Origin: a virus
DNA: 64,000 bases
Reading direction: 5' to 3' (one strand)
Virus record (IMG/VR): IMGVR_UViG_3300035698_016797
Location: 1-64,000 of that record
This document shows, piece by piece, positions 2,421 through 55,211 of this stretch. The translations under genes and the position numbers were made by a program. Under the pieces are notes generated by a model that ran no database searches, was not told where the DNA came from, and saw only the letters and a program-made list of their open reading frames with translations. Within the stretch, counting starts at the first letter, position 1. Each line of letters opens with the position of its first letter.

Positions 2421-2996
2421 TTATCTACGAGATCTTATTGCAGGATCAGGATCAATATGAGGAGTTTGTACGAAATTGGCAGTGTACTCTCTAGTTAGTG
2501 GAGTTCTACCATTCTCTGCTAAAAACTCTTCCCTTTGACGTCTTGCTATTTCCTGATTAATACGCTCTCTTTCTAATGTCATATCAATATTTGGATATGC
2601 CTCTTCAAAACGATTCCAAGTTCCATAGTTGTTTGGATTCTCATTTCTAAAAAAAACTATCATTCCAATTTGATTAAAGTTGTTTTTAAGGACATGAATA
2701 TTTCGTATTGAATGACGACGTCCCCTAAAAGACCTGTGCCCTTGAGCAATATCTCTAATGAGCAAAGATACACAAGGGAATGACAAAGAGTGCATTTGTG
2801 CCGAAAATGACTCATACCTATCATTCGAATGTAGGTGTTGCAAATTTCCAGCTCTATCTAAAACTCCAGCTTCAGCTCTTAGATCAAGAGAAAAAAGACA
2901 AACCCTTTCGTTTCTCATATCAATAATGTCCAGTTCGAATTCGTTTGTTTCCAATATTACTACGTTTCTTGAATTGCCTAGTCTTGAGTTTAACAT
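2421..2996 (-). CDS. Hypothetical protein
   Basis: Start trimmed to MLNSRL because the upstream part of the ORF call overlaps tRNA-Val. Confidence 0.55.
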   Translation of the reverse strand: MLNSRLGNSRNVVILETNEFELDIIDMRNERVCLFSLDLRAEAGVLDRAGNLQHLHSNDRYESFSAQMHSLSFPCVSLLIRDIAQGHRSFRGRRHSIRNIHVLKNNFNQIGMIVFFRNENPNNYGTWNRFEEAYPNIDMTLERERINQEIARRQREEFLAENGRTPLTREYTANFVQTPHIDPDPAIRSRR

Positions 2997-3008
2997 TGTA
3001 ATCCTTTC

Positions 3009-3085
3009 TGGTGGGGTGTGCCAGACTTGAACTGGCGACCTCCTGAATGTCACCCAGGCGCTCTAGCCAACTGAGCTAACACCCC
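3009..3085 (-). tRNA. tRNA-Val(GAC)
   Basis: Acceptor GGGGTGT/ACACCCC; loop GTGACAT (atypical G32); CCA. Confidence 0.85.
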
Positions 3086-3260
3086 ATCTAATTTCTTTCC
3101 TTGAAAGCGCCGTTATGACGCCAAGTGGCCAAAAAACAGTATTGACAATCCACACCGTTGGAACTCTCCAATATGACCACCCATAAGCTTTAATCTGTCT
3201 GCTAACAGCATACATACCCCACGAGATGGCAAACGGTGCATTGATATACCAATAGTTCAT

Positions 3261-3914
3261 TTACTTCTCCAATTCTACATTCCAATACATATCGCTAATG
3301 AAGTCTTCCCAAGATTTAGGTACACGCTTGAACGGCTTGTTCTTTGCGCTGTATACTGGCTCTATAGGGTCACTAAGCAAAGTCATACCACAATCTTTGA
3401 GAAGCATACTTCCCTTTAGGTTATTACACCTCTTACACGCAGTGGCAACATTTTTCCATTCTGTAGTTCCACCTCTGCAACGAGGATTAATGTGATCAAT
3501 ACTTAAATCTTTAGGGCTGAATCCTATTCCGCAATACTGACACACATACTGGTCTCTTTGAAAAACTGCTCTGCGTGTCAAAATTGCCTTGGTATACTTA
3601 CGCTTCTGATATTTGTTGAGAACGATGATTTCTGGAACCTTAATAGTTATTCCTGGAGAGCGAACCATTCCATTAGGATTCCTTTCCATCTCTTGAGCCG
3701 CAAGTACTGCATCGGACCAATTTGTGACCCATTCATCCCATGTGTATAGCTCACATGCTGAAAGTTTGCCATCTTCCTTCGTATATTGAAGAATCTTGGC
3801 TTTGTCTTGAAAAACCTTAATGATTGATCTATACGCAGGAATAAATCCCGCATACTCCCAACGGTGTCCTTTTTGGTTTACAACAAGAACCTTGCTATAT
3901 CTCAAAGCTTCCAT
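3261..3914 (-). CDS. HNH endonuclease (McrA-like)
   Basis: RRAVFQRDQYVCQYCG...IDHINPRCRGG...NVATACKRCNNLKG. Confidence 0.9.
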   Translation of the reverse strand: MEALRYSKVLVVNQKGHRWEYAGFIPAYRSIIKVFQDKAKILQYTKEDGKLSACELYTWDEWVTNWSDAVLAAQEMERNPNGMVRSPGITIKVPEIIVLNKYQKRKYTKAILTRRAVFQRDQYVCQYCGIGFSPKDLSIDHINPRCRGGTTEWKNVATACKRCNNLKGSMLLKDCGMTLLSDPIEPVYSAKNKPFKRVPKSWEDFISDMYWNVELEK

Positions 3915-3933
3915 TTTTATAACTCCTTACGTT

Positions 3934-4011
3934 TGGCGGGAATGACGAGACTCGAACTCGCAACCTCCGACGTGACAGGCCGGTGCTCTGGACCAATTGA
4001 GCTACATCCCC
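3934..4011 (-). tRNA. tRNA-Asp(GTC)
   Basis: Cloverleaf; GTC anticodon; GTTCGAG T-loop; CCA. Confidence 0.93.
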
Positions 4012-4017
4012 ATATTG

Positions 4018-4093
4018 TGGTGAGCGTAGCAGGACTCGAACCTGCGGTAACCTCCTTGTAAAAGAGGGGCTTTTGCCACTAAGCTATACGCCC
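4018..4093 (-). tRNA. tRNA-Val(TAC)
   Basis: Anticodon loop TTTACAA; CCA. Confidence 0.9.
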
Positions 4094-4333
4094 AATATTT
4101 CTTTCAATCCATCATCTTCTGTAGTGTCTGATTGAGTTTCTCTTCCATACCACTGTTCGCGTTGACGTGTTACCGTCTCAAACACTTTTAGGCAGTTACA
4201 CAGATAGTCTCGCAAAATAAAGTCTGGTGTATTACTATTTTTTTCCTTACTGTAGCGATTTATCAAACTAGTTAACTCACTTCTAAAATCTGGAGCATCT
4301 GCTTTTTTACTCATCTTTTTCATCTTTCTATAT

Positions 4334-4408
4334 TGGGGTGGTATACGAGAGTTGAACTCGCTCTAACTGGGCCACAACCAGTCGTGCTACCACTACACTA
4401 ATACCACC
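4334..4408 (-). tRNA. tRNA-His(GTG)
   Basis: Encoded G-1; acceptor GTGGTAT/ATACCAC; GTG anticodon; CCA. Confidence 0.92.
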
Positions 4409-5073
4409 ACCTATTTCTTCTTTTCTTCATCTTTCTTCCTGAAAATTCTATCATATCCTTCGTCCCATTTCTTTTTGTCACAAGGACGTGGTTTGTCACC
4501 TTTGCCTGCCATGCTAATCTCCTACTTCAATACCAATGTTGATATCTTGGAAGCTTCCTCTATTCTTTCTGAATCAGCCTCCATTTCGTCTAGTAAGTCT
4601 GCATGAAACTCTAACGAGAAATCACCAGCTCTAATCAGACCAACCAAAGCCTTGGTGTCACCGTTAAGCCTACTAATACGATCCATGGTACTAATAACCT
4701 CGTTCGTATTTCTGATCAACTCTACAATATCAAATTTGCTTTCCATGTGTTTTACCTTCTTGCTATTTCGACTGCCATTTTAAGAAGTTTCCATTTCGTA
4801 CGAGTAATGTCATCTACATTCTCCGGTTCATATCTAAGGATGTTTTGAGCCGCTTCTAAGAGACCGGGAGAAGAGGATCTTAATCGAGCGTTGACTTTTA
4901 TCTCATCACTGACATCTGGGTCATCTTCTATACACTTTAGACAATCATTGCCCAATTCAACACCGTGAATACAACACCCTGACCCAAAGTGACAAGACCG
5001 AGGAACTAATTGGTTTTCTTTATCTTTTCCTGGACCTAAATCCCATTCTAAATTTTTCATATCGTAACCTTTC

Positions 5074-5152
5074 TGGTAGCTCCAGGGGGATTTGAACCCT
5101 CCGTCTCTGCCTTGAGAGGGCAGCATCCTAAACCTAACTAGACGATGGAGCC
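5074..5152 (-). tRNA. tRNA-Glu(CTC)
   Basis: CTGCC-CTCTCAA-GGCAG anticodon arm; CCA. Confidence 0.92.
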
Positions 5153-5168
5153 TCATTCTTTTGATTAT

Positions 5169-5243
5169 TGGCAACCCCACGGGGAATCGAACCCACGCTT
5201 TCTTGGATGAAAACCAAGTGTCCTACCAATAGACGATGGGGTC
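5169..5243 (-). tRNA. tRNA-Glu(TTC)
   Basis: CTTGG-TTTTCAT-CCAAG anticodon arm; CCA. Confidence 0.92.
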
Positions 5244-5249
5244 ACATTT

Positions 5250-5327
5250 TGGTGGGCGTAGAAGGATTTGAACCTTCGATTTCCTCCTTATCAGGGAGGC
5301 GTTCTAACCTGGCTAAACTATACGCCC
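5250..5327 (-). tRNA. tRNA-Ile(GAT)
   Basis: CCTCC-CTGATAA-GGAGG anticodon arm; CCA. Confidence 0.93.
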
Positions 5328-5500
5328 TCATTGACCAAGTCATCCCATTCAGCATCCATTTGCTGTAGGGCAACTGCAATCTGCTTCTTACCTTCTCTTC
5401 TAATCTTCTTTTTGAGAACTCTTTTAATTCTCTGTCTTGCTGGCTGAGACTCTTCTTCTAATGCATAACTTACAATACATTCTTTCATTTTCAAACTCCT

Positions 5501-5574
5501 TGGCTACCCTTCTAGGACTCGAACCCAAACTAACTGGACCAAAACCAGTCGTGCTTCCATTACACCAAAGGGTA
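5501..5574 (-). tRNA. tRNA-Gln(TTG)
   Basis: Cloverleaf; TTG anticodon; CCA. Confidence 0.92.
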
Positions 5575-5970
5575 TCATTTAACACATAGAGAACTTACTA
5601 CCTTTTTCAACTTTGTCAACCAATGATTCTTACCTTTCTTGATAAATGGGTCTATTTCACCCTTGTCGAAAAACAATCCTCCGCAAAATGTACACTTGTC
5701 TAGTTTGATACCTTCCTCTATCCAATAGCACATTTCACCTCTCGAACACTTTGGACATAGGTGATCCAATACAACCACCATCTTGCCACGACTCATTCGT
5801 TCCGCCTTCGCTTGTTTAGAAAGCTCTGTTATGTCTTCCTGCCTACCGGTTCTAATTTTTTCCAATTCTCCTTCATCGAGCCATATTGAATTGCAAACTT
5901 CGCACCAGTCAATAAGAACTCCTTCAAGAATTGTCTGTTTGGTTTTAGCATTACATCTTAAACATAACAT
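5575..5970 (-). CDS. Tandem zf-TFIIB-like zinc-ribbon protein
   Basis: Two CxxC...IDxCxxCxxxWLDxGE repeats. Confidence 0.75.
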   Translation of the reverse strand: MLCLRCNAKTKQTILEGVLIDWCEVCNSIWLDEGELEKIRTGRQEDITELSKQAKAERMSRGKMVVVLDHLCPKCSRGEMCYWIEEGIKLDKCTFCGGLFFDKGEIDPFIKKGKNHWLTKLKKVVSSLCVK

Positions 5971-5979
5971 TGCTCTCTC

Positions 5980-6291
5980 CTATTGATAATGTAGCTCTCT
6001 ATGGCAATTTGCACAAATAAGAATGCATTTTGCCACCTCTGCATCTATTCTGCTTTTACTCCACTTATCCTGTGAAGCTCTGTTTAGACCGTCTCCCTTC
6101 TCACTGACGTGATGAAAGTCCAAGGCACCGACACACTTATTGTATCCACATATGGAACAGCCTTTAATCTTAAAGCCGTCTATATATTTCTTAACTTCGG
6201 CCCTTCGTCTTGCCTGCTTGGACAAGTATTCTTCTTTATTCTCTCTGTAATGATTGTGTTTCCACAACTTTTGTTTTTCTGATTGTCTCAT
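5980..6291 (-). CDS. Small HNH endonuclease
   Basis: CSICGYNKCVGALDFHH...KCILICANCHRELH; start trimmed to avoid tRNA-Pro; paralog of 62034-62429. Confidence 0.8.
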   Translation of the reverse strand: MRQSEKQKLWKHNHYRENKEEYLSKQARRRAEVKKYIDGFKIKGCSICGYNKCVGALDFHHVSEKGDGLNRASQDKWSKSRIDAEVAKCILICANCHRELHYQ

Positions 6292-6307
6292 ATGATACCT
6301 ATTAAAT

Positions 6308-6384
6308 TGGTCTGTGCGGCAAGATTTGAACTTGCGATTTCTTGGTCCCAAACCAAGCGTGATACCAGACTTCACTACGCACAG
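6308..6384 (-). tRNA. tRNA-Pro(TGG)
   Basis: CTTGG-TTTGGGA-CCAAG anticodon arm; CCA. Confidence 0.93.
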
Positions 6385-6399
6385 TCACACACTTTTACT

Positions 6400-6476
6400 T
6401 GGTGGAGCTACTCGGAATCGAACCGAGGACATCCTGCTTGCAAAGCAGGTGCTCTATCCATCTGAGCTACAGCCCC
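6400..6476 (-). tRNA. tRNA-Ala(TGC)
   Basis: GGGGCTG 5' end with G3:U70; TGC anticodon; CCA. Confidence 0.94.
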
Positions 6477-6477
6477 A

Positions 6478-6512
6478 AACAAAAGCCCCTGAGGATTTCT
6501 CCTGAGGGGCTT
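6478..6512 (-). terminator. Intrinsic terminator / attenuator directly upstream of the tRNA array
   Basis: Minus strand AAGCCCCT-CAGG-AGAAAT-CCTC-AGGGGCTT followed by TTGTTT. Confidence 0.75.
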
Positions 6513-6544
6513 CACTCTCTACGATATAACTAGGAAAGTACGTC

Positions 6545-6637
6545 CTAGACACACACGAGACAGCCCCTGCCGCATGGTGCGACCGGAATGGCTTCTTGTA
6601 CATCAAGATGCTGTCTTTGTGTTTTGTATAGTCTCAT
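6545..6637 (-). CDS. 30-aa leader peptide MRLYKTQRQHLDVQEAIPVAPCGRGCLVCV
   Basis: AAAGGAAAG ribosome-binding site; lies just before the terminator; contains AGGGGCT, complementary to the terminator 5' arm. Confidence 0.65.
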   Translation of the reverse strand: MRLYKTQRQHLDVQEAIPVAPCGRGCLVCV

Positions 6638-6693
6638 AATGCTTTCCTTTCCATAAACGAATTGAATGCTTCTTTTTCTACTCTCTACATATA

Positions 6694-7194
6694 CTACTCT
6701 CTTAATTGAGAAATGTCAACACCTTTTGACAAATTTTCTTTTTTTCTGCCTCTTTTTTCAGTTCTTGCTGGAATTGTGAGGGTTTTTAGCAGTCTGCTGA
6801 TATCATTGTATATAGTGGCAATGGATGGACTGGGTCCATACTTCATGCCGTATATACCTTGCACATGGCGAGCAGATGGGGTTCCGTCAAACTCGTCTAT
6901 GATACATCTTACTCTTCCTCTTCTCTGACTTATTCTGTTTTGATTTTCAGTGACGAGGTCGAGCGGCCCCTTTACTCTATATCTAGTTTTACAACCACAC
7001 GAAATGGGACTTTGCAATCTTCCCACTTTAGTAAGACTATACAGGTGCTTCTCGCAAAGGTTTCCACACTCACATCTACAAATGGCCATTGTTCTATACT
7101 GAGAGCTAATCTGACGACGTTCAACGCCAACAATGGTTAGAGCATCAACTACCTTTCCTATATGTTTTCTTCCGGCCAGTCTTTTCATAACCAA
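6694..7194 (-). CDS. Hypothetical DNA-binding protein (CxCxCG...SCGC module seen in phage homing endonucleases)
   Basis: CRCECGN...ISCGC. Confidence 0.5.
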   Translation of the reverse strand: MVMKRLAGRKHIGKVVDALTIVGVERRQISSQYRTMAICRCECGNLCEKHLYSLTKVGRLQSPISCGCKTRYRVKGPLDLVTENQNRISQRRGRVRCIIDEFDGTPSARHVQGIYGMKYGPSPSIATIYNDISRLLKTLTIPARTEKRGRKKENLSKGVDISQLRE

Positions 7195-7216
7195 CTCCTT
7201 ATCGTTATCTCTTCCA

Positions 7217-15580: not shown

Positions 15581-18500
15581 ATGCCTGCTCAAAACACAAT
15601 CAACATCAAACCTCTTACATGGGCTATCATTGGCCTTGGCCTTTTGACGGCATTGCTGTTTGAGGAGTGTGCTTTCACATACATCGGCATCTTCGTCGGT
15701 GTGGCAATTCGATACGTCTTTCCTCTTCGCACTTCTACCGGCAATGCTCCCAAAAAGAGATTGTCAACCATATGGCACGACTTCATCAATTCCTAATGTA
15801 AAGGGTAATGAATCATGAAAATGATTGCTACGATAGGCTGTTCTCACGAGATCCGTAACATATTGCTCGCACTTGCAGCTACTGAAGTTGAAGTGATAGT
15901 GGTGGTTGGAGAGATGGAGCTTGAAGGCCCATCCATGGTTGCACTGTTGGACTCCAAAGTATTTCCTCCACAAAAAAGCTCTGACGATGGTCAATTGGCC
16001 ATTCGTACTGGTCGATTCCACCTCCTCATCCACCAAATCGAGGTGAAGAACATCGTTATCAATGCACACAGCGTGTGTATCAACCTCTGCAACAAGGACT
16101 ATACAAGACTTCCCATAAGCCACTATAAGGGGAAAAGATAATGGCTAAGTTTGGAAGATCTGGATCTATGGAGATAGTGGACCATGTAAGAGGAAATGCT
16201 GAAAGTGCTCGTCGTACTTCTGGGATCTTTGGTCCACCAGTGTTAGCTGAAAGTCATACATGTAACCCTCCTGGCTTTGAAGGCAAGAGAGTTGTTCACA
16301 CCCTTGAACGTGGTGAAGAAGTGATGAAAGCTATTCTCACTATGATTGCACTGGCCAATGTCTCATGCCATGTTGAAAGTGATTTCAGCACAAGGGAAAA
16401 CGTTGGCCTCATCATGTCTGAACACGAGGAAGTTGCACTGTTCACCTGTCATTCAACACGAAGGAGTGACAATAGGGGCAAACAATCATTCACAGCAAAC
16501 GATGTGGACAGAATTGAACTCCTTGATCAAAGTCACGTTGCAGTGCTCGTCAAAATAAATGCATTTGTGTAATCTAGTTAAGAGGAAAAGATAATGGCTG
16601 GACTCGGAAGACTTGGACCTATGGCTGTTGAACCTGTCAGGTCTTGTCATTTTAACGTGGAACGTCTGCTCATCCATTGTGGTACTTGTTCAATTGAGTG
16701 TTGCATTGATGGATGGGAAGAAGGTTCAGATTACCATTGGAATCTTTGTGGTGTTCCAATATGGAGCAATGTATTGAGAGCCTTTGTGACTACGGAAAAC
16801 AATAGAACTCAAGTGGTGTTCCAGCCTAAAAATGTACAGACCATAAAGATTGCTGGAAGAAGCTGTGTTGTTCAGTTGTGCCGTGGTGTTGTTCCTATCA
16901 AACCTTTTGAAGAAACATATCCAAACGTGGAGTGATGATGAAAGATTGCATTGTCATGTATGGTGGTTTTGTGATGTTGCCTGCTTTAGTGGGTAGTATC
17001 ATCGTGTTAGCAAGAAAGTTGAGAAAGAAAGGGCAGACAGATGGACAGGTTGGCAGTAGGGCAAGGATCGACGTTCAAGCATTGTACAATGGTAAATCCG
17101 TTCGTGCTATGTGTAGTCGTGAGTGCAATCTTGGAGAAACTGAGTTGGATGAGAGAGAGGGTTGCCAAAGATCGCAAAGATGGAGTGGTGAACGACCACT
17201 TTCCTTGCGACGGAGCCATGCCTCTGTTCATGCGGGATTTTATCCTGCTCGATGGATCATGTAAAGAACACTATCGAGTTGACCCAGATCCCAAAGACAG
17301 AATACACTACTGGCCTGTAGAGCAAAGTGAGAGAGAGTATGAAGACAGACCACATGGTGACAATGAACTGGTATTCAAACCCAATCCAGACGTGATATTC
17401 ATTCAGTTCCGTGCAGCTGATGAGGCTCCCGTCACTGTTGCTGGATTCCAGTTCAAGCCAAGATGGGAAAACAGTCACCAAGAGGCATTTGGCCAAGTTC
17501 TCCGTCATGGTGGAAACCATGATTGGAGCATGTCTGAACTGAAGGCTAATATCTTCTCAATGTGTGACCTCTACTACAGTCGCCACCTTCACCGCTTCAT
17601 TGCTCCTTCCTGATCCCAAGTAAAACTCAACGTGGTGTGAACACTGAGGATGGGCGTTAATGGTATTGCCCTGCTGTTAGCGTTTGTCTTTAGTGTTCAC
17701 ATCATGTTGAACTCAACGAGGTGTATCATGTTGACCGTGAGAATGGCAAGAACAACAGGAAATTTGATCGTTGAGGATAAATTCCGCAAGAATAGAGCAG
17801 TTATCACGTTAAAGGGACAGATTCTCTTTATAAGTGGGCTGGCTGAAAGTGCGGTAAGATGGGCAGTGAAAGACTACGTTGATAAGTACCCTCGACCAAT
17901 AGGGTGTAAACACACATCCGTTCAGTGTTATGTATAAGGGAGAGAATAGAAAATACCATGCAGTACTCTACATCCACATATAGTAGTAACTACTTTTCTA
18001 CGTCTGACCGTTCGTTAGACTATGGTAGTTATAACCTTGATGGGTTGAAGAGTTCTCCAAAGTCTCACATAAAGGTTCGCTTCCTGTCACATGGCAAGGT
18101 TAAAGCAAATGTGAGTGGTATTGTAGTGTCAGAACGTACTGATGATGGTGATTGCTCTATCAAAGAACAGTTTCCTGTCATTGTGTTGGTTGCCAATTTT
18201 GAAGGAGTGAGTAAGATTTACTCCACGGTGAGAAGCAATGGAGTTGTTCAGCATGATGTGTTCACTCTCGACGGCATTATGATGATAGAGCTTTTAGGAC
18301 GCATACCTCTGTATAAGGCACAAACTTATCTGGTTGAAATATGCAAAACTAAAGGCATTAAGACTGGTGGATGGCGTTTTTTGCTTGCCGACTGGCCAAG
18401 TCCACAAGAAGGAGTTGCAGCATGAGTGGAATAAAGGAAATGACTTGTCAATGTCAAATCTTTACGCTCTCGTATGAAGACTCTGACTGTGGACAAACAA

Positions 18501-26042: not shown

Positions 26043-26468
26043 GGGGGCGACATGGTTTCGACATGATTAGTGTAAGGTGTACTGCAAGCGGTGGTTGGAC
26101 GAATGGCCACCTAAAAAATCGCCCAAACAAGTAACTCGTAAAGAGACTACTTTCACTGGCTTGAGGCCGGTTGCACGTAAGAGCGTTCTCGCTTTTGCAA
26201 TTGCTGCCTAATCGAGCTATCACCTCATAAGGGGTGCGTCTTTGGTGCCGATGCTCGCTGAGCGTCAACGGCGAAAAGTAGCGAGCAAAGCCTCTCTCTG
26301 ATGTTCTAATGAGAGTTGTAGTTTGAGAACTTAGCGAATGCCAACGGGTTGCTCACACTCGTCCTTGTAATATGGCAGAGCGAATAGTGGACAATGCGAG
26401 ACAAGCTTGTAGAGGTATGCCGATGTAGCTTTTTGTGGACGCGGGTTCGATTCCCGCCGCCTCCACCA
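26043..26468 (+). ncRNA. ssrA: tmRNA
   Basis: GGGGGCG 5' end with G3:U; 3' GGTTCGATTCCC...CTCCACCA; tag frame ending AFAIAA-stop. Confidence 0.95.
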
Positions 26469-31354: not shown

Positions 31355-31431
31355 TCACGGGTAGCTCAGTTGGCAGAGCAGCTTCTGAAACATGGAGTGT
31401 GTCGGTGGTTCGAGTCCATCCCTGTGAACCA
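31355..31431 (+). tRNA. Isolated tRNA-like gene with non-canonical 8-nt anticodon loop (Phe GAA-like or pseudo-tRNA)
   Basis: TCACGGG/CCTGTGA-A-CCA; normal D and T arms; anticodon arm GCTTC-TGAAACAT-GGAGT. Confidence 0.65.
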
Positions 31432-46971: not shown

Positions 46972-48249
46972 ATGCTGAATCAATTGTCACGACAGTTTGG
47001 AGAGCTGCCAGTAGAACTTGTTGCTAAAGATCAAAGCGACATTCCGATAGTGTCGTTTATTCAAGCTAGGCATGGGCCGGTATTGCCTGGTCGAAATATA
47101 AACGAGAAGGCATTTGGCCAACTACTTGAACTTCTGCTCGAAGGCAAGATTGTCAGAGTTAGATGTAATATAGATGCTTTTGCTCAAGAGATGGAGCATC
47201 TGAGAAAACTTGCATCTAAAAATGTTCTCATGGTATCTGCTACGGATATTTGGGAACATAATAGAGGTGAAGTTTACAAATTCAGGTTTAACGCATCAAG
47301 CGAATACTATATGGGACTTGATGAATTAGTAAATCCTGTTGATATAATTGCTTCTGTTCTTGGAGTGGAGGGAGAACTCCTTACAAGTCTTATGGCAGAT
47401 ATTTCGTCTCACTACAATCGCTTTCCATTGACAAAAAGGGATGGTTCGCAAAGATGGATTAACGCTCCAGACGATGATCTGAAAGGGGTTCAGAGACGCA
47501 TAATGAACAGAATGCTTTATCGTGGATGGGCAACTCCATGTGCTCACGGATTCATTCATGGAAAAAGTATTAAGACAAACGCAGAACGTCATGTTGGAGC
47601 CAAGGTTGTCGTCAAAATGGACATATCCAAATTCTTTGACAACATAGGAATTGACAAACTTAATACAGCCTTTGTTCCTCTGCTGAAAGCAGAAGAGCTT
47701 TTCACAATCAATTTTATCTCATCGTTGTGTACTCTCAACGGGGTCACCCCACAAGGAGCACCAACGAGTCCCGCACTATCAAATCTCGTGGTAAGAAACA
47801 TGGACTTTGCCCTCATGGGTTTAGCCAGAAAACATCACGCAGTCTACACGAGATATGCTGATGATTTGGTATTTTCCTCGAAAGATAATCGTGCATTACC
47901 ATCAATCATCCCTTTGGTAATGAACGTTGTCAACTCGAATGGGTTCCGAATCAACATGAGAAAAACCGGAGTCTTTCGCGACGGTGGAAGAATGCCGGTA
48001 ACCGGACTGGTAATCAATAAACATACAAACGTTCCTCGTAAGGAGCGTTATAAAGTACGTGCGGAGCTTCATAACATTGCAACTGGAAGAAAACCTGCAA
48101 GCGAAGAGGATCTTCAGCGTCTCGCCGGAAAGGTGGCGTTCATCAATATGGCGAATCCGCAACAGGGAGCACGTTTTGATAGTTTGATGACAGCAGCAAA
48201 GGCTGGTGCCGTACAATCAACGGAAGGTGCGGAAAACAATGACAGTTGA
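46972..48249 (+). CDS. Retron-type reverse transcriptase with N-terminal extension
   Basis: KRDGSQRWINAP; AHGF; NAERH (NAxxH); KMDISKFFDNI; PQGAPTSPALSN; YTRYADDLVFS; PVTGLVIN (VTG). Confidence 0.93.
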   Translation: MLNQLSRQFGELPVELVAKDQSDIPIVSFIQARHGPVLPGRNINEKAFGQLLELLLEGKIVRVRCNIDAFAQEMEHLRKLASKNVLMVSATDIWEHNRGEVYKFRFNASSEYYMGLDELVNPVDIIASVLGVEGELLTSLMADISSHYNRFPLTKRDGSQRWINAPDDDLKGVQRRIMNRMLYRGWATPCAHGFIHGKSIKTNAERHVGAKVVVKMDISKFFDNIGIDKLNTAFVPLLKAEELFTINFISSLCTLNGVTPQGAPTSPALSNLVVRNMDFALMGLARKHHAVYTRYADDLVFSSKDNRALPSIIPLVMNVVNSNGFRINMRKTGVFRDGGRMPVTGLVINKHTNVPRKERYKVRAELHNIATGRKPASEEDLQRLAGKVAFINMANPQQGARFDSLMTAAKAGAVQSTEGAENNDS

Positions 48250-55137: not shown

Positions 55138-55211
55138 GTACAGCGTTAGCTCATGATGGCGAGAGCGTCCTGTAATTGGGTATGGCGGAGGTTCGAGTCC
55201 TCTCCTGTACA
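55138..55211 (+). pseudogene. tRNA-like element with degenerate anticodon arm and no CCA
   Basis: GTACAG/CTGTAC acceptor; GCTC/GAGC D-stem; GGAGG-TTCGAGT-CCTCT T-arm. Confidence 0.55.

Follow-up and report, generated by a model that had tools for sequence, protein, structure and literature searches.

Putative polyspecific leader-peptide attenuators ahead of phage tRNA blocks

Known attenuators and the phage locus

The closest known counterparts of the locus described here are the multivalent enterobacterial attenuators, among which the ilvGMEDA leader carries Ile, Leu and Val codons and the thr leader Thr and Ile codons. In both, as at the phage locus, a promoter is followed by a short leader ORF, translated in those systems, with codons for several amino acids, and an intrinsic terminator and four RNA segments, pairing as 1:2, 2:3 and 3:4 in those systems and in predicted folds of the phage leader, lie ahead of the first regulated gene. 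A stalled ribosome favours read-through in the enterobacterial leaders; the phage cassettes have the same geometry, judging from sequence and predicted folds. The two kinds of system differ in what they regulate and in what they sample. The ilvGMEDA and thr attenuators control biosynthetic enzymes, whereas the phage cassettes precede tRNA genes; they contain repeats of codons for one to three amino acids, whereas the phage leaders represent six to eight amino acids with about one codon per isoacceptor. Also unlike those systems, the product here would feed back directly on the decoding of the leader, and the device is phage-borne and present in several copies, one per tRNA block.

Other well-known leaders are more distant. 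The trpL, hisL, pheL and leuL leaders share the mechanism and the geometry, with a stop codon 20-30 nt ahead of the terminator, but they use tandem identical codons that report a single signal. T-box riboswitches are likewise transcription attenuators that report tRNA status through a terminator/antiterminator choice ahead of translation-related genes. Their contact with uncharged tRNA is direct, made by a specifier codon and the T-box bulge with no ribosome involved, whereas the phage cassettes have an ORF with a Shine-Dalgarno (SD) sequence; their targets are mainly aminoacyl-tRNA synthetase and amino-acid genes. At the three cassettes of our phage, Rfam gave no T-box, leader or other cis-regulatory match, either at gathering score or with E up to 0.1. 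In the erm, cat, vmlR and bmrCD leaders, too, the downstream RNA changes its structure when a ribosome stalls in a short upstream ORF. There the stall is caused by a drug together with the nascent peptide, and many of these leaders act on translation initiation, whereas here the signal would lie in codon choice.

The virus record that we analysed is a single contig of 181,030 bp with a GC content of 41.9%, and the window is its first 64 kb. The genome has about 33 tRNA genes, covering all 20 amino acids, which the terminators of three leader cassettes divide into three blocks, A, B and C. We conclude, with a probability of about 0.78, that such a cassette is a polyspecific leader-peptide attenuator of transcription, which senses decoding capacity and thereby controls entry into a block of phage tRNA genes. 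Judging from the sequence, a block is probably transcribed more when ribosomes read its codons slowly. Because the regulated genes are, at the first cassette, 11 tRNA genes with endonuclease ORFs, and not genes for amino-acid biosynthesis or transport, this system is set apart from the classical members of the group.

The leader cassettes and their tRNA blocks

Block A comprises 11 minus-strand tRNA genes (6476-2334) preceded by leader 1. In order, they specify tRNA-Ala, Pro, Gln(UUG), Ile(GAU), Glu(UUC), Glu(CUC), His, Val(UAC), Asp, Val(GAC) and Gln(CUG), and thus eight amino acids: Ala, Pro, Gln, Ile, Glu, His, Val and Asp. HNH-type endonuclease ORFs and other small ORFs are interspersed among them, and no minus-strand promoter-like site with more than 9/12 consensus matches was found in the interior of the block. 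The remaining tRNA genes are on the plus strand, in an array that begins at 169099 and extends across the end of the record to 426. It contains block B (Ser, Tyr, Leu, Phe, Cys and Met) and block C (Gly, Trp, Thr, Asn, Lys, Arg and Ile-UAU); the tail of block C, tRNA-Lys(CUU) and tRNA-Arg(CCU), lies at 262-426 in the window, and leaders 2 and 3 of this array lie outside it.

The arrays have several further features. Block C contains a tRNA-Arg(UCU) gene (genome 178973-179654; 16974-17655 in L001) that is split by a 606-nt intron after anticodon-loop position 35, with an HNH_3 endonuclease ORF inside the intron; AGA is therefore a block-C codon. Between tRNA-Ser and tRNA-Tyr, at genome ~169200-169335 (~7201-7336 in L001), there is a tRNA-like sequence whose acceptor and T arms match but which has ~60 extra nt, and which neither ARAGORN nor Rfam calls. 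HNH, PD-(D/E)XK, radical-SAM, NADAR and methyltransferase ORFs lie among the tRNAs, at 2421-6375 of the window on the minus strand and at 7500-18300 in L001.

Elsewhere in the window, on the plus strand, a phage tmRNA at 26043-26468 is recognized by Rfam (RF00023, 116 bits) and missed by ARAGORN; it fits a phage that manages stalled ribosomes. ARAGORN assigns a four-base anticodon (aaac) to an odd tRNA at 31355-31431 (Rfam tRNA, 43.6 bits), which could be frameshift-suppressor-like or degenerate. A tRNA-Ile(AAT) at 55138-55211 is called by ARAGORN alone and is absent from Rfam at gathering score. The window also encodes a reverse-transcriptase-like protein at 46972-48249 (PHROG 2825/1423).

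The first-pass annotation of this DNA had described a 30-codon ORF with a ribosome-binding site and an intrinsic terminator ahead of the 11 minus-strand tRNAs, and our analysis confirmed this description in every detail. All elements of the cassette lie on the minus strand. Sigma-70 promoters and intrinsic terminators were assumed for the host. A -35-like TTGACA (6719-6714), within the end of the upstream ORF, is followed after a 17-nt spacer by a -10-like TAGTAT (6696-6691); this promoter-like pair, recognized by consensus match only, has 10/12 matches to a sigma-70-like consensus. A purine-rich SD-like sequence, AAGGAAAG (6649-6642), stands 4 nt ahead of the ATG of the leader 1 ORF (P0001, 6637-6545), which has 30 sense codons and ends in TAG. 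After a 32-nt spacer comes the terminator hairpin (6512-6483), made of 8 bp, a C.C mismatch and 4 bp closed by a GAAA loop, with a computed energy of -19.4 kcal/mol (-16.9 for the core alone). Its T-tract, TTTTGTTT, occupies 6484-6477, and the next base, 6476, is the start of tRNA-Ala.

This arrangement leaves no space for a separate promoter between hairpin and tRNA-Ala, a possibility that we rejected on these grounds, and it implies that transcripts of tRNA-Ala must cross the hairpin. We also considered the hairpin as a terminator for the plus strand and rejected this, the plus strand having neither a T-tail nor converging genes at this place. Upstream, a 166-aa HNH-like ORF (6694-7194) lies between MazG and leader 1; in the closer of the two relatives described below, MazG is directly 5' of the leader.

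The core of the argument is the codon content of the leader. Codons 7-21 (6619-6575) had been quoted as a run in which 13 of 15 codons specify one of the eight amino acids served by the 11 downstream tRNAs, namely Gln, His, Asp, Val, Glu, Ala, Ile or Pro. The quoted codons are exact in the ORF, the count and the set of amino acids hold, and both Gln codon types (CAA and CAG) and both Val types (GTA and GTC) are indeed present. Block-A tRNAs read the 13 codons. Under wobble rules, 10 of the 11 tRNAs, all except Glu-CUC, have a codon in the run, and GCC needs four-way wobble by Ala-UGC. The two misfits, AGA and CTT, are codons of other blocks.

The same genome contains two further cassettes of the same build, each with a promoter-like site, an SD, an ORF of 24-26 codons, a 24-32 nt spacer, a hairpin with a T-run and a tRNA within 10-15 nt. 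The 26-codon leader 2 (168950-169030, plus strand) is preceded by a promoter-like TTGACT-17-TATACT and an SD and followed by a hairpin (169064-169084) with seven T, then by tRNA-Ser at 169099. Upstream of the 24-codon leader 3 (173347-173421, plus strand) are a promoter-like site, tRNA-Met and an SD; downstream are a hairpin (173448-173471, -21.1 kcal/mol) with seven T and tRNA-Gly at 173481. In both, the SD is AAGGA(G/A), 8-9 nt ahead of the ATG. The tRNA-Met(CAU) gene between the promoter-like site and leader 3 (11209-11331 in L001), which has the same position in the closer relative, is upstream of the leader and so would escape its attenuator. The plus-strand array also has several more strong promoter-like sites downstream of its attenuators, so that gating there would be only partial.

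Each leader codon was assigned to the block that supplies the tRNA reading it. Uninterrupted runs of own-block codons extend over 10, 12 and 12 codons in leaders 1, 2 and 3, starting at codons 12, 8 and 6. The run of leader 2 (codons 8-19) touches 10 of the 11 block-B tRNAs, and that of leader 3 occupies codons 6-17. The 3 x 3 table of leaders against blocks gives a chi-square of 20.6, and when codons were permuted among the three leaders the observed diagonal was reached in 3 of 200,000 trials. Among the 362,056 codon positions of the genome, only two places have a run of at least 12 block-B codons, and only two have such a run of block-C codons; in either case, the leader is one of the two and a low-complexity stretch the second. 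For leader 1, 13 of 15 codons from the block-A amino-acid set are found in 5.3e-4 of stop-free 15-codon windows, at 34 places in the six frames of the genome, which makes leader 1 alone a roughly 1-in-100 event and suggestive only. Two more cassettes and the relatives make chance untenable.

A switch also needs a competing structure. The annotation had pointed out that AGGGGCT (6568-6562, codons 24-26) could serve as an antiterminator strand, and at all seven positions it is complementary to AGCCCCT in the 5' arm of the terminator. In folds of the nascent transcript the complete 5' strand of the antiterminator, segment 2, consists of AGGGGCT and GTCTC (6568-6557, codons 24-27), and the terminator hairpin represents segments 3 and 4. 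The terminator 5' arm finds its best partner, in each of the three cassettes, within the last three to eight codons of the ORF: codons 24-27 in leader 1, codons 22-25 in leader 2 (AAGGAGG/CCTCCTT) and codons 20-23 in leader 3 (an 8-bp match), with energies of -14.7, -13.1 and -15.5 kcal/mol, respectively; for leader 1 the duplex ranges from -14.7 to -16.3 kcal/mol. Dinucleotide shuffles of the upstream RNA equal these antiterminators 59, 35 and 1 times per 1000, and the 7-nt antiterminator of leader 1 taken alone is marginally better than shuffles.

We folded the nascent RNA as it would be before the 3' arm is made, with an assumed ribosome mask of the A-site codon and the 12 nt 3' of it. With a ribosome early or in the middle of the run the antiterminator forms; with a ribosome at the last codons of the run or at the stop codon it is absent. 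In the minimum-energy (MFE) fold of untranslated leader 1 RNA, segment 1, AGACAGC (6616-6610, codons 8-9), pairs with GCTGTCT of segment 2 as a putative anti-antiterminator, so that segment 2 is paired to part of the run, a pairing seen in MFE folds only. The MFE fold of the whole leader has a z-score of -4.0, and that of the full transcript contains the terminator, as in known attenuators. In silico, the layout is thus the classical one of 1:2, 2:3 and 3:4 pairings. Taken together, the predictions that the attenuator reading makes at the level of sequence hold: there is a leader with a cognate codon run, a terminator, and an antiterminator strand in the last codons.

Cassettes in related phages

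No cultured phage is close to ours, the terminase being at most 28% identical, and BLAST of 6300-7200 against cultured phages returned only matches at the level of tRNAs or to neighbouring genes. Pattern scans for the neighbouring proteins yielded no true relatives (loci L002-L027, which are without tRNAs), the radical-SAM and MazG neighbours, used as queries in word-based protein searches, matched only the phage itself, and a DNA pattern built from the conserved terminator matched nine unrelated contigs, all without tRNAs. A protein search with the terminase detected metagenomic homologues 69% to 45% identical on long contigs. Our comparative evidence comes from two of these metagenomic contigs, which we call relative 1 (L037) and relative 2 (L052).

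Relative 1 (148 kb; terminase 69% identical) has the same two convergent tRNA arrays. Its terminators precede exactly three tRNAs, Ala, Ser-UGA and the Gly after tRNA-Met, which are the homologues of those in our phage. Ahead of each terminator there is an SD-led ORF of 25-29 codons, and a promoter-like pair is found at the place corresponding to that of leader 1. Own-block codons make up 18/24, 18/25 and 18/28 of the three leaders. The match between leaders and blocks (chi-square 50, p = 3.5e-10) was reached in none of 500,000 permutations.

Differences in tRNA content between the two phages are reflected in their leaders. Both Lys tRNAs belong to block A in relative 1 and to block C in our phage; correspondingly, AAA and AAG lie inside the block-A leader run of relative 1, with no Lys codon in its block-B and block-C leaders, and in our phage AAA occurs twice in leader 3, with no Lys codon inside the leader 1 run. 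Relative 1 has an extra Thr-GGU tRNA, and ACC occurs twice in its block-C leader; it also uses ATA for Ile-UAU. Its block-B leader keeps a Tyr codon, and no tRNA-Tyr was found in the array.

The switch elements have changed as well. The leaders 1 of the two phages can still be aligned: their terminators differ by one compensatory change, from A-U to C-G, and the antiterminator pairs that flank the GGGG:CCCC core have changed on both sides. The leaders 3 are unalignable, yet each has its own matched terminator/antiterminator pair. The terminator and antiterminator sequences of relative 1 thus differ from ours and keep their complementarity to each other. In shuffle tests, antiterminators of the relatives were equalled 88, 2 and 13 times per 1000. 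The leader 1 homologue of relative 1 is not significant when its arm only is tested (406/1000 shuffles), and it forms a longer helix in the nascent fold.

Relative 2 is more distant (198 kb, GC 59%, terminase 48% identical) and has one long tRNA array, which opens with Phe, Ala, Ile, Ile, Lys and Ala and has one cassette in front. In its leader, 13 of 15 consecutive codons specify Phe, Ala, Ile or Lys, with P ~1.5e-8 against a background of 18% for these four amino acids. A 10-bp antiterminator involves the last five codons (-20.7 kcal/mol; matched by 13/1000 shuffles), and the terminator lies 12 nt ahead of tRNA-Phe.

In a distant 198-kb IMG/VR phage (L041) we found no terminator abutting a tRNA. 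There is a weaker candidate on its minus strand at ~15700-15800, a 22-codon ORF with a terminator (-13.8 kcal/mol) 60 nt ahead of tRNA-Thr. This ORF is rich in codons for Thr, Ser, Asn, Tyr, Phe, Lys, Asp and Ile; the tRNAs that follow are Thr, Asp, Ile, Tyr, Phe, Lys, Asn and Ser, and 14 of 21 codons match these next eight tRNAs. As this phage has no cassette other than the one weak candidate, the design is not universal. Nevertheless, across seven cassettes in three genomes the design is kept while sequence, base composition and block content change. The first-pass annotation had proposed to look for co-variation between leader codons and tRNA content in related phages; it is present both within the genome, among the three cassettes, and in the two relatives.

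A proposed decoding sensor and its alternatives

These observations suggest the following model for block A. Transcription would start from the promoter-like site at 6719-6691, and the 30-codon leader would be translated behind the moving RNA polymerase, with codons 7-21 sampling about one codon per block-A tRNA. When decoding is fast, the ribosome would reach the last codons or the stop codon and cover segment 2 (6568-6557); the hairpin at 6512-6483 could then form, and transcription would terminate at the T-tract, one base before tRNA-Ala. When any of the sampled codons is decoded slowly, the ribosome would stall upstream and leave segment 2 free to pair with the 5' arm of the terminator once this is made, allowing read-through into the 11 tRNA genes. 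Without translation, segment 1 would sequester segment 2, and termination would be the default. As the phage's own tRNAs accumulate, the leader would again be read fast and termination would resume. The leader is read by the very tRNAs whose genes lie behind it, so the circuit would amount to negative feedback on decoding capacity and work as an OR gate for the block's tRNAs.

Translation of the leader, the efficiency of termination, the direction in which the switch responds and its natural trigger are our inferences. That trigger would be depletion of host tRNAs, with host shut-off, codon mismatch and anticodon nucleases as candidate causes. The sampling itself may set a limit on sensitivity: each tRNA is represented by one or two codons only, where classical attenuators usually repeat the regulatory codon, so that a single hungry codon may stall the ribosome too briefly. 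Amino-acid starvation is a further difficulty for the model, since it would stall the ribosome as well and extra tRNA would then be of no use.

The most serious alternative, though in our judgement an improbable one, is that the same hardware responds to a signal other than the size of the tRNA pool, such as general translation speed, amino-acid starvation or ribosome availability, and that codon choice merely keeps the phage's own tRNAs from limiting the reading of the leader. The geometry of the switch responds to any stall, whatever its cause, so amino-acid starvation or a general slowing of translation would act on it too; one codon per tRNA provides little specificity for a single species, and the phage tmRNA points to a general concern with stalled ribosomes. 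A generic speed sensor, however, has no need to track the downstream tRNAs, whereas the leader codons follow block content in three cassettes and in two relatives, including the relocated Lys tRNAs. Moreover, amino-acid starvation is not relieved by tRNA synthesis. A still less probable view separates hairpin and ORF from termination altogether: they might affect the processing or stability of pre-tRNA, or translation might block Rho or RNases, with no switch between 2:3 and 3:4 pairing. The hairpin does lie within the pre-tRNA 5' leader that RNase P removes, the leader 1 antiterminator is not significant by itself, and the plus-strand array has internal promoter-like sites. But a canonical G+C-rich stem with a T-run is present in all seven cassettes, and each ORF contains, at the corresponding position, a complementary segment that changes with the terminator arm; a processing signal explains neither this co-changing segment nor the codon match.

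It is very unlikely, finally, that leader 1 is an ordinary small gene with its own terminator, or that the hairpin is the terminator of the upstream operon, and that the codon resemblance reflects coincidence or composition. Short ORFs and terminator-like hairpins are common (77 hairpins were listed), the modest odds for leader 1 considered singly have been noted above, and the first codon letter partly separates the blocks, which means that local base composition could mimic a match. Against this, the empirical genome-wide background already includes composition effects, the three cassettes and the four in the relatives all match their own block, the design persists where leaders have diverged beyond alignment, and a T-tract that abuts the tRNA leaves no room for a promoter, so that the tRNAs are read through the hairpin. 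We consider it rather likely, beyond this one locus, that a family of polyspecific codon-sampler attenuators operates in phages with large tRNA sets, each making its block available on demand under negative feedback from the speed at which about one codon per tRNA of that block is decoded.

Studies of phage tRNAs have mainly addressed codon usage, degradation of host tRNAs and escape from anticodon nucleases. To our knowledge, the regulation of phage tRNA genes, and the reason why their arrays are split into blocks, are largely unexplained. Our search of the full-text literature, with many subscription papers outside its scope, came upon no account of tRNA genes controlled by leader-peptide attenuation. 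If the model is true, this would be the first case of leader-peptide attenuation controlling such genes, so that attenuation would reach a new class of target and take on OR-gate logic covering as many as ten tRNA species; the cassette could also serve as a compact synthetic sensor of tRNA availability. For the phage, it would provide a self-tuning tRNA supply that is switched on when the host pool fails, whether through shut-off, codon mismatch or an anticodon-nuclease defence. A sensor that follows decoding codon by codon would explain the block structure and the co-evolution of leaders with blocks, as well as how a phage avoids making at least 30 tRNAs when the host pool suffices.
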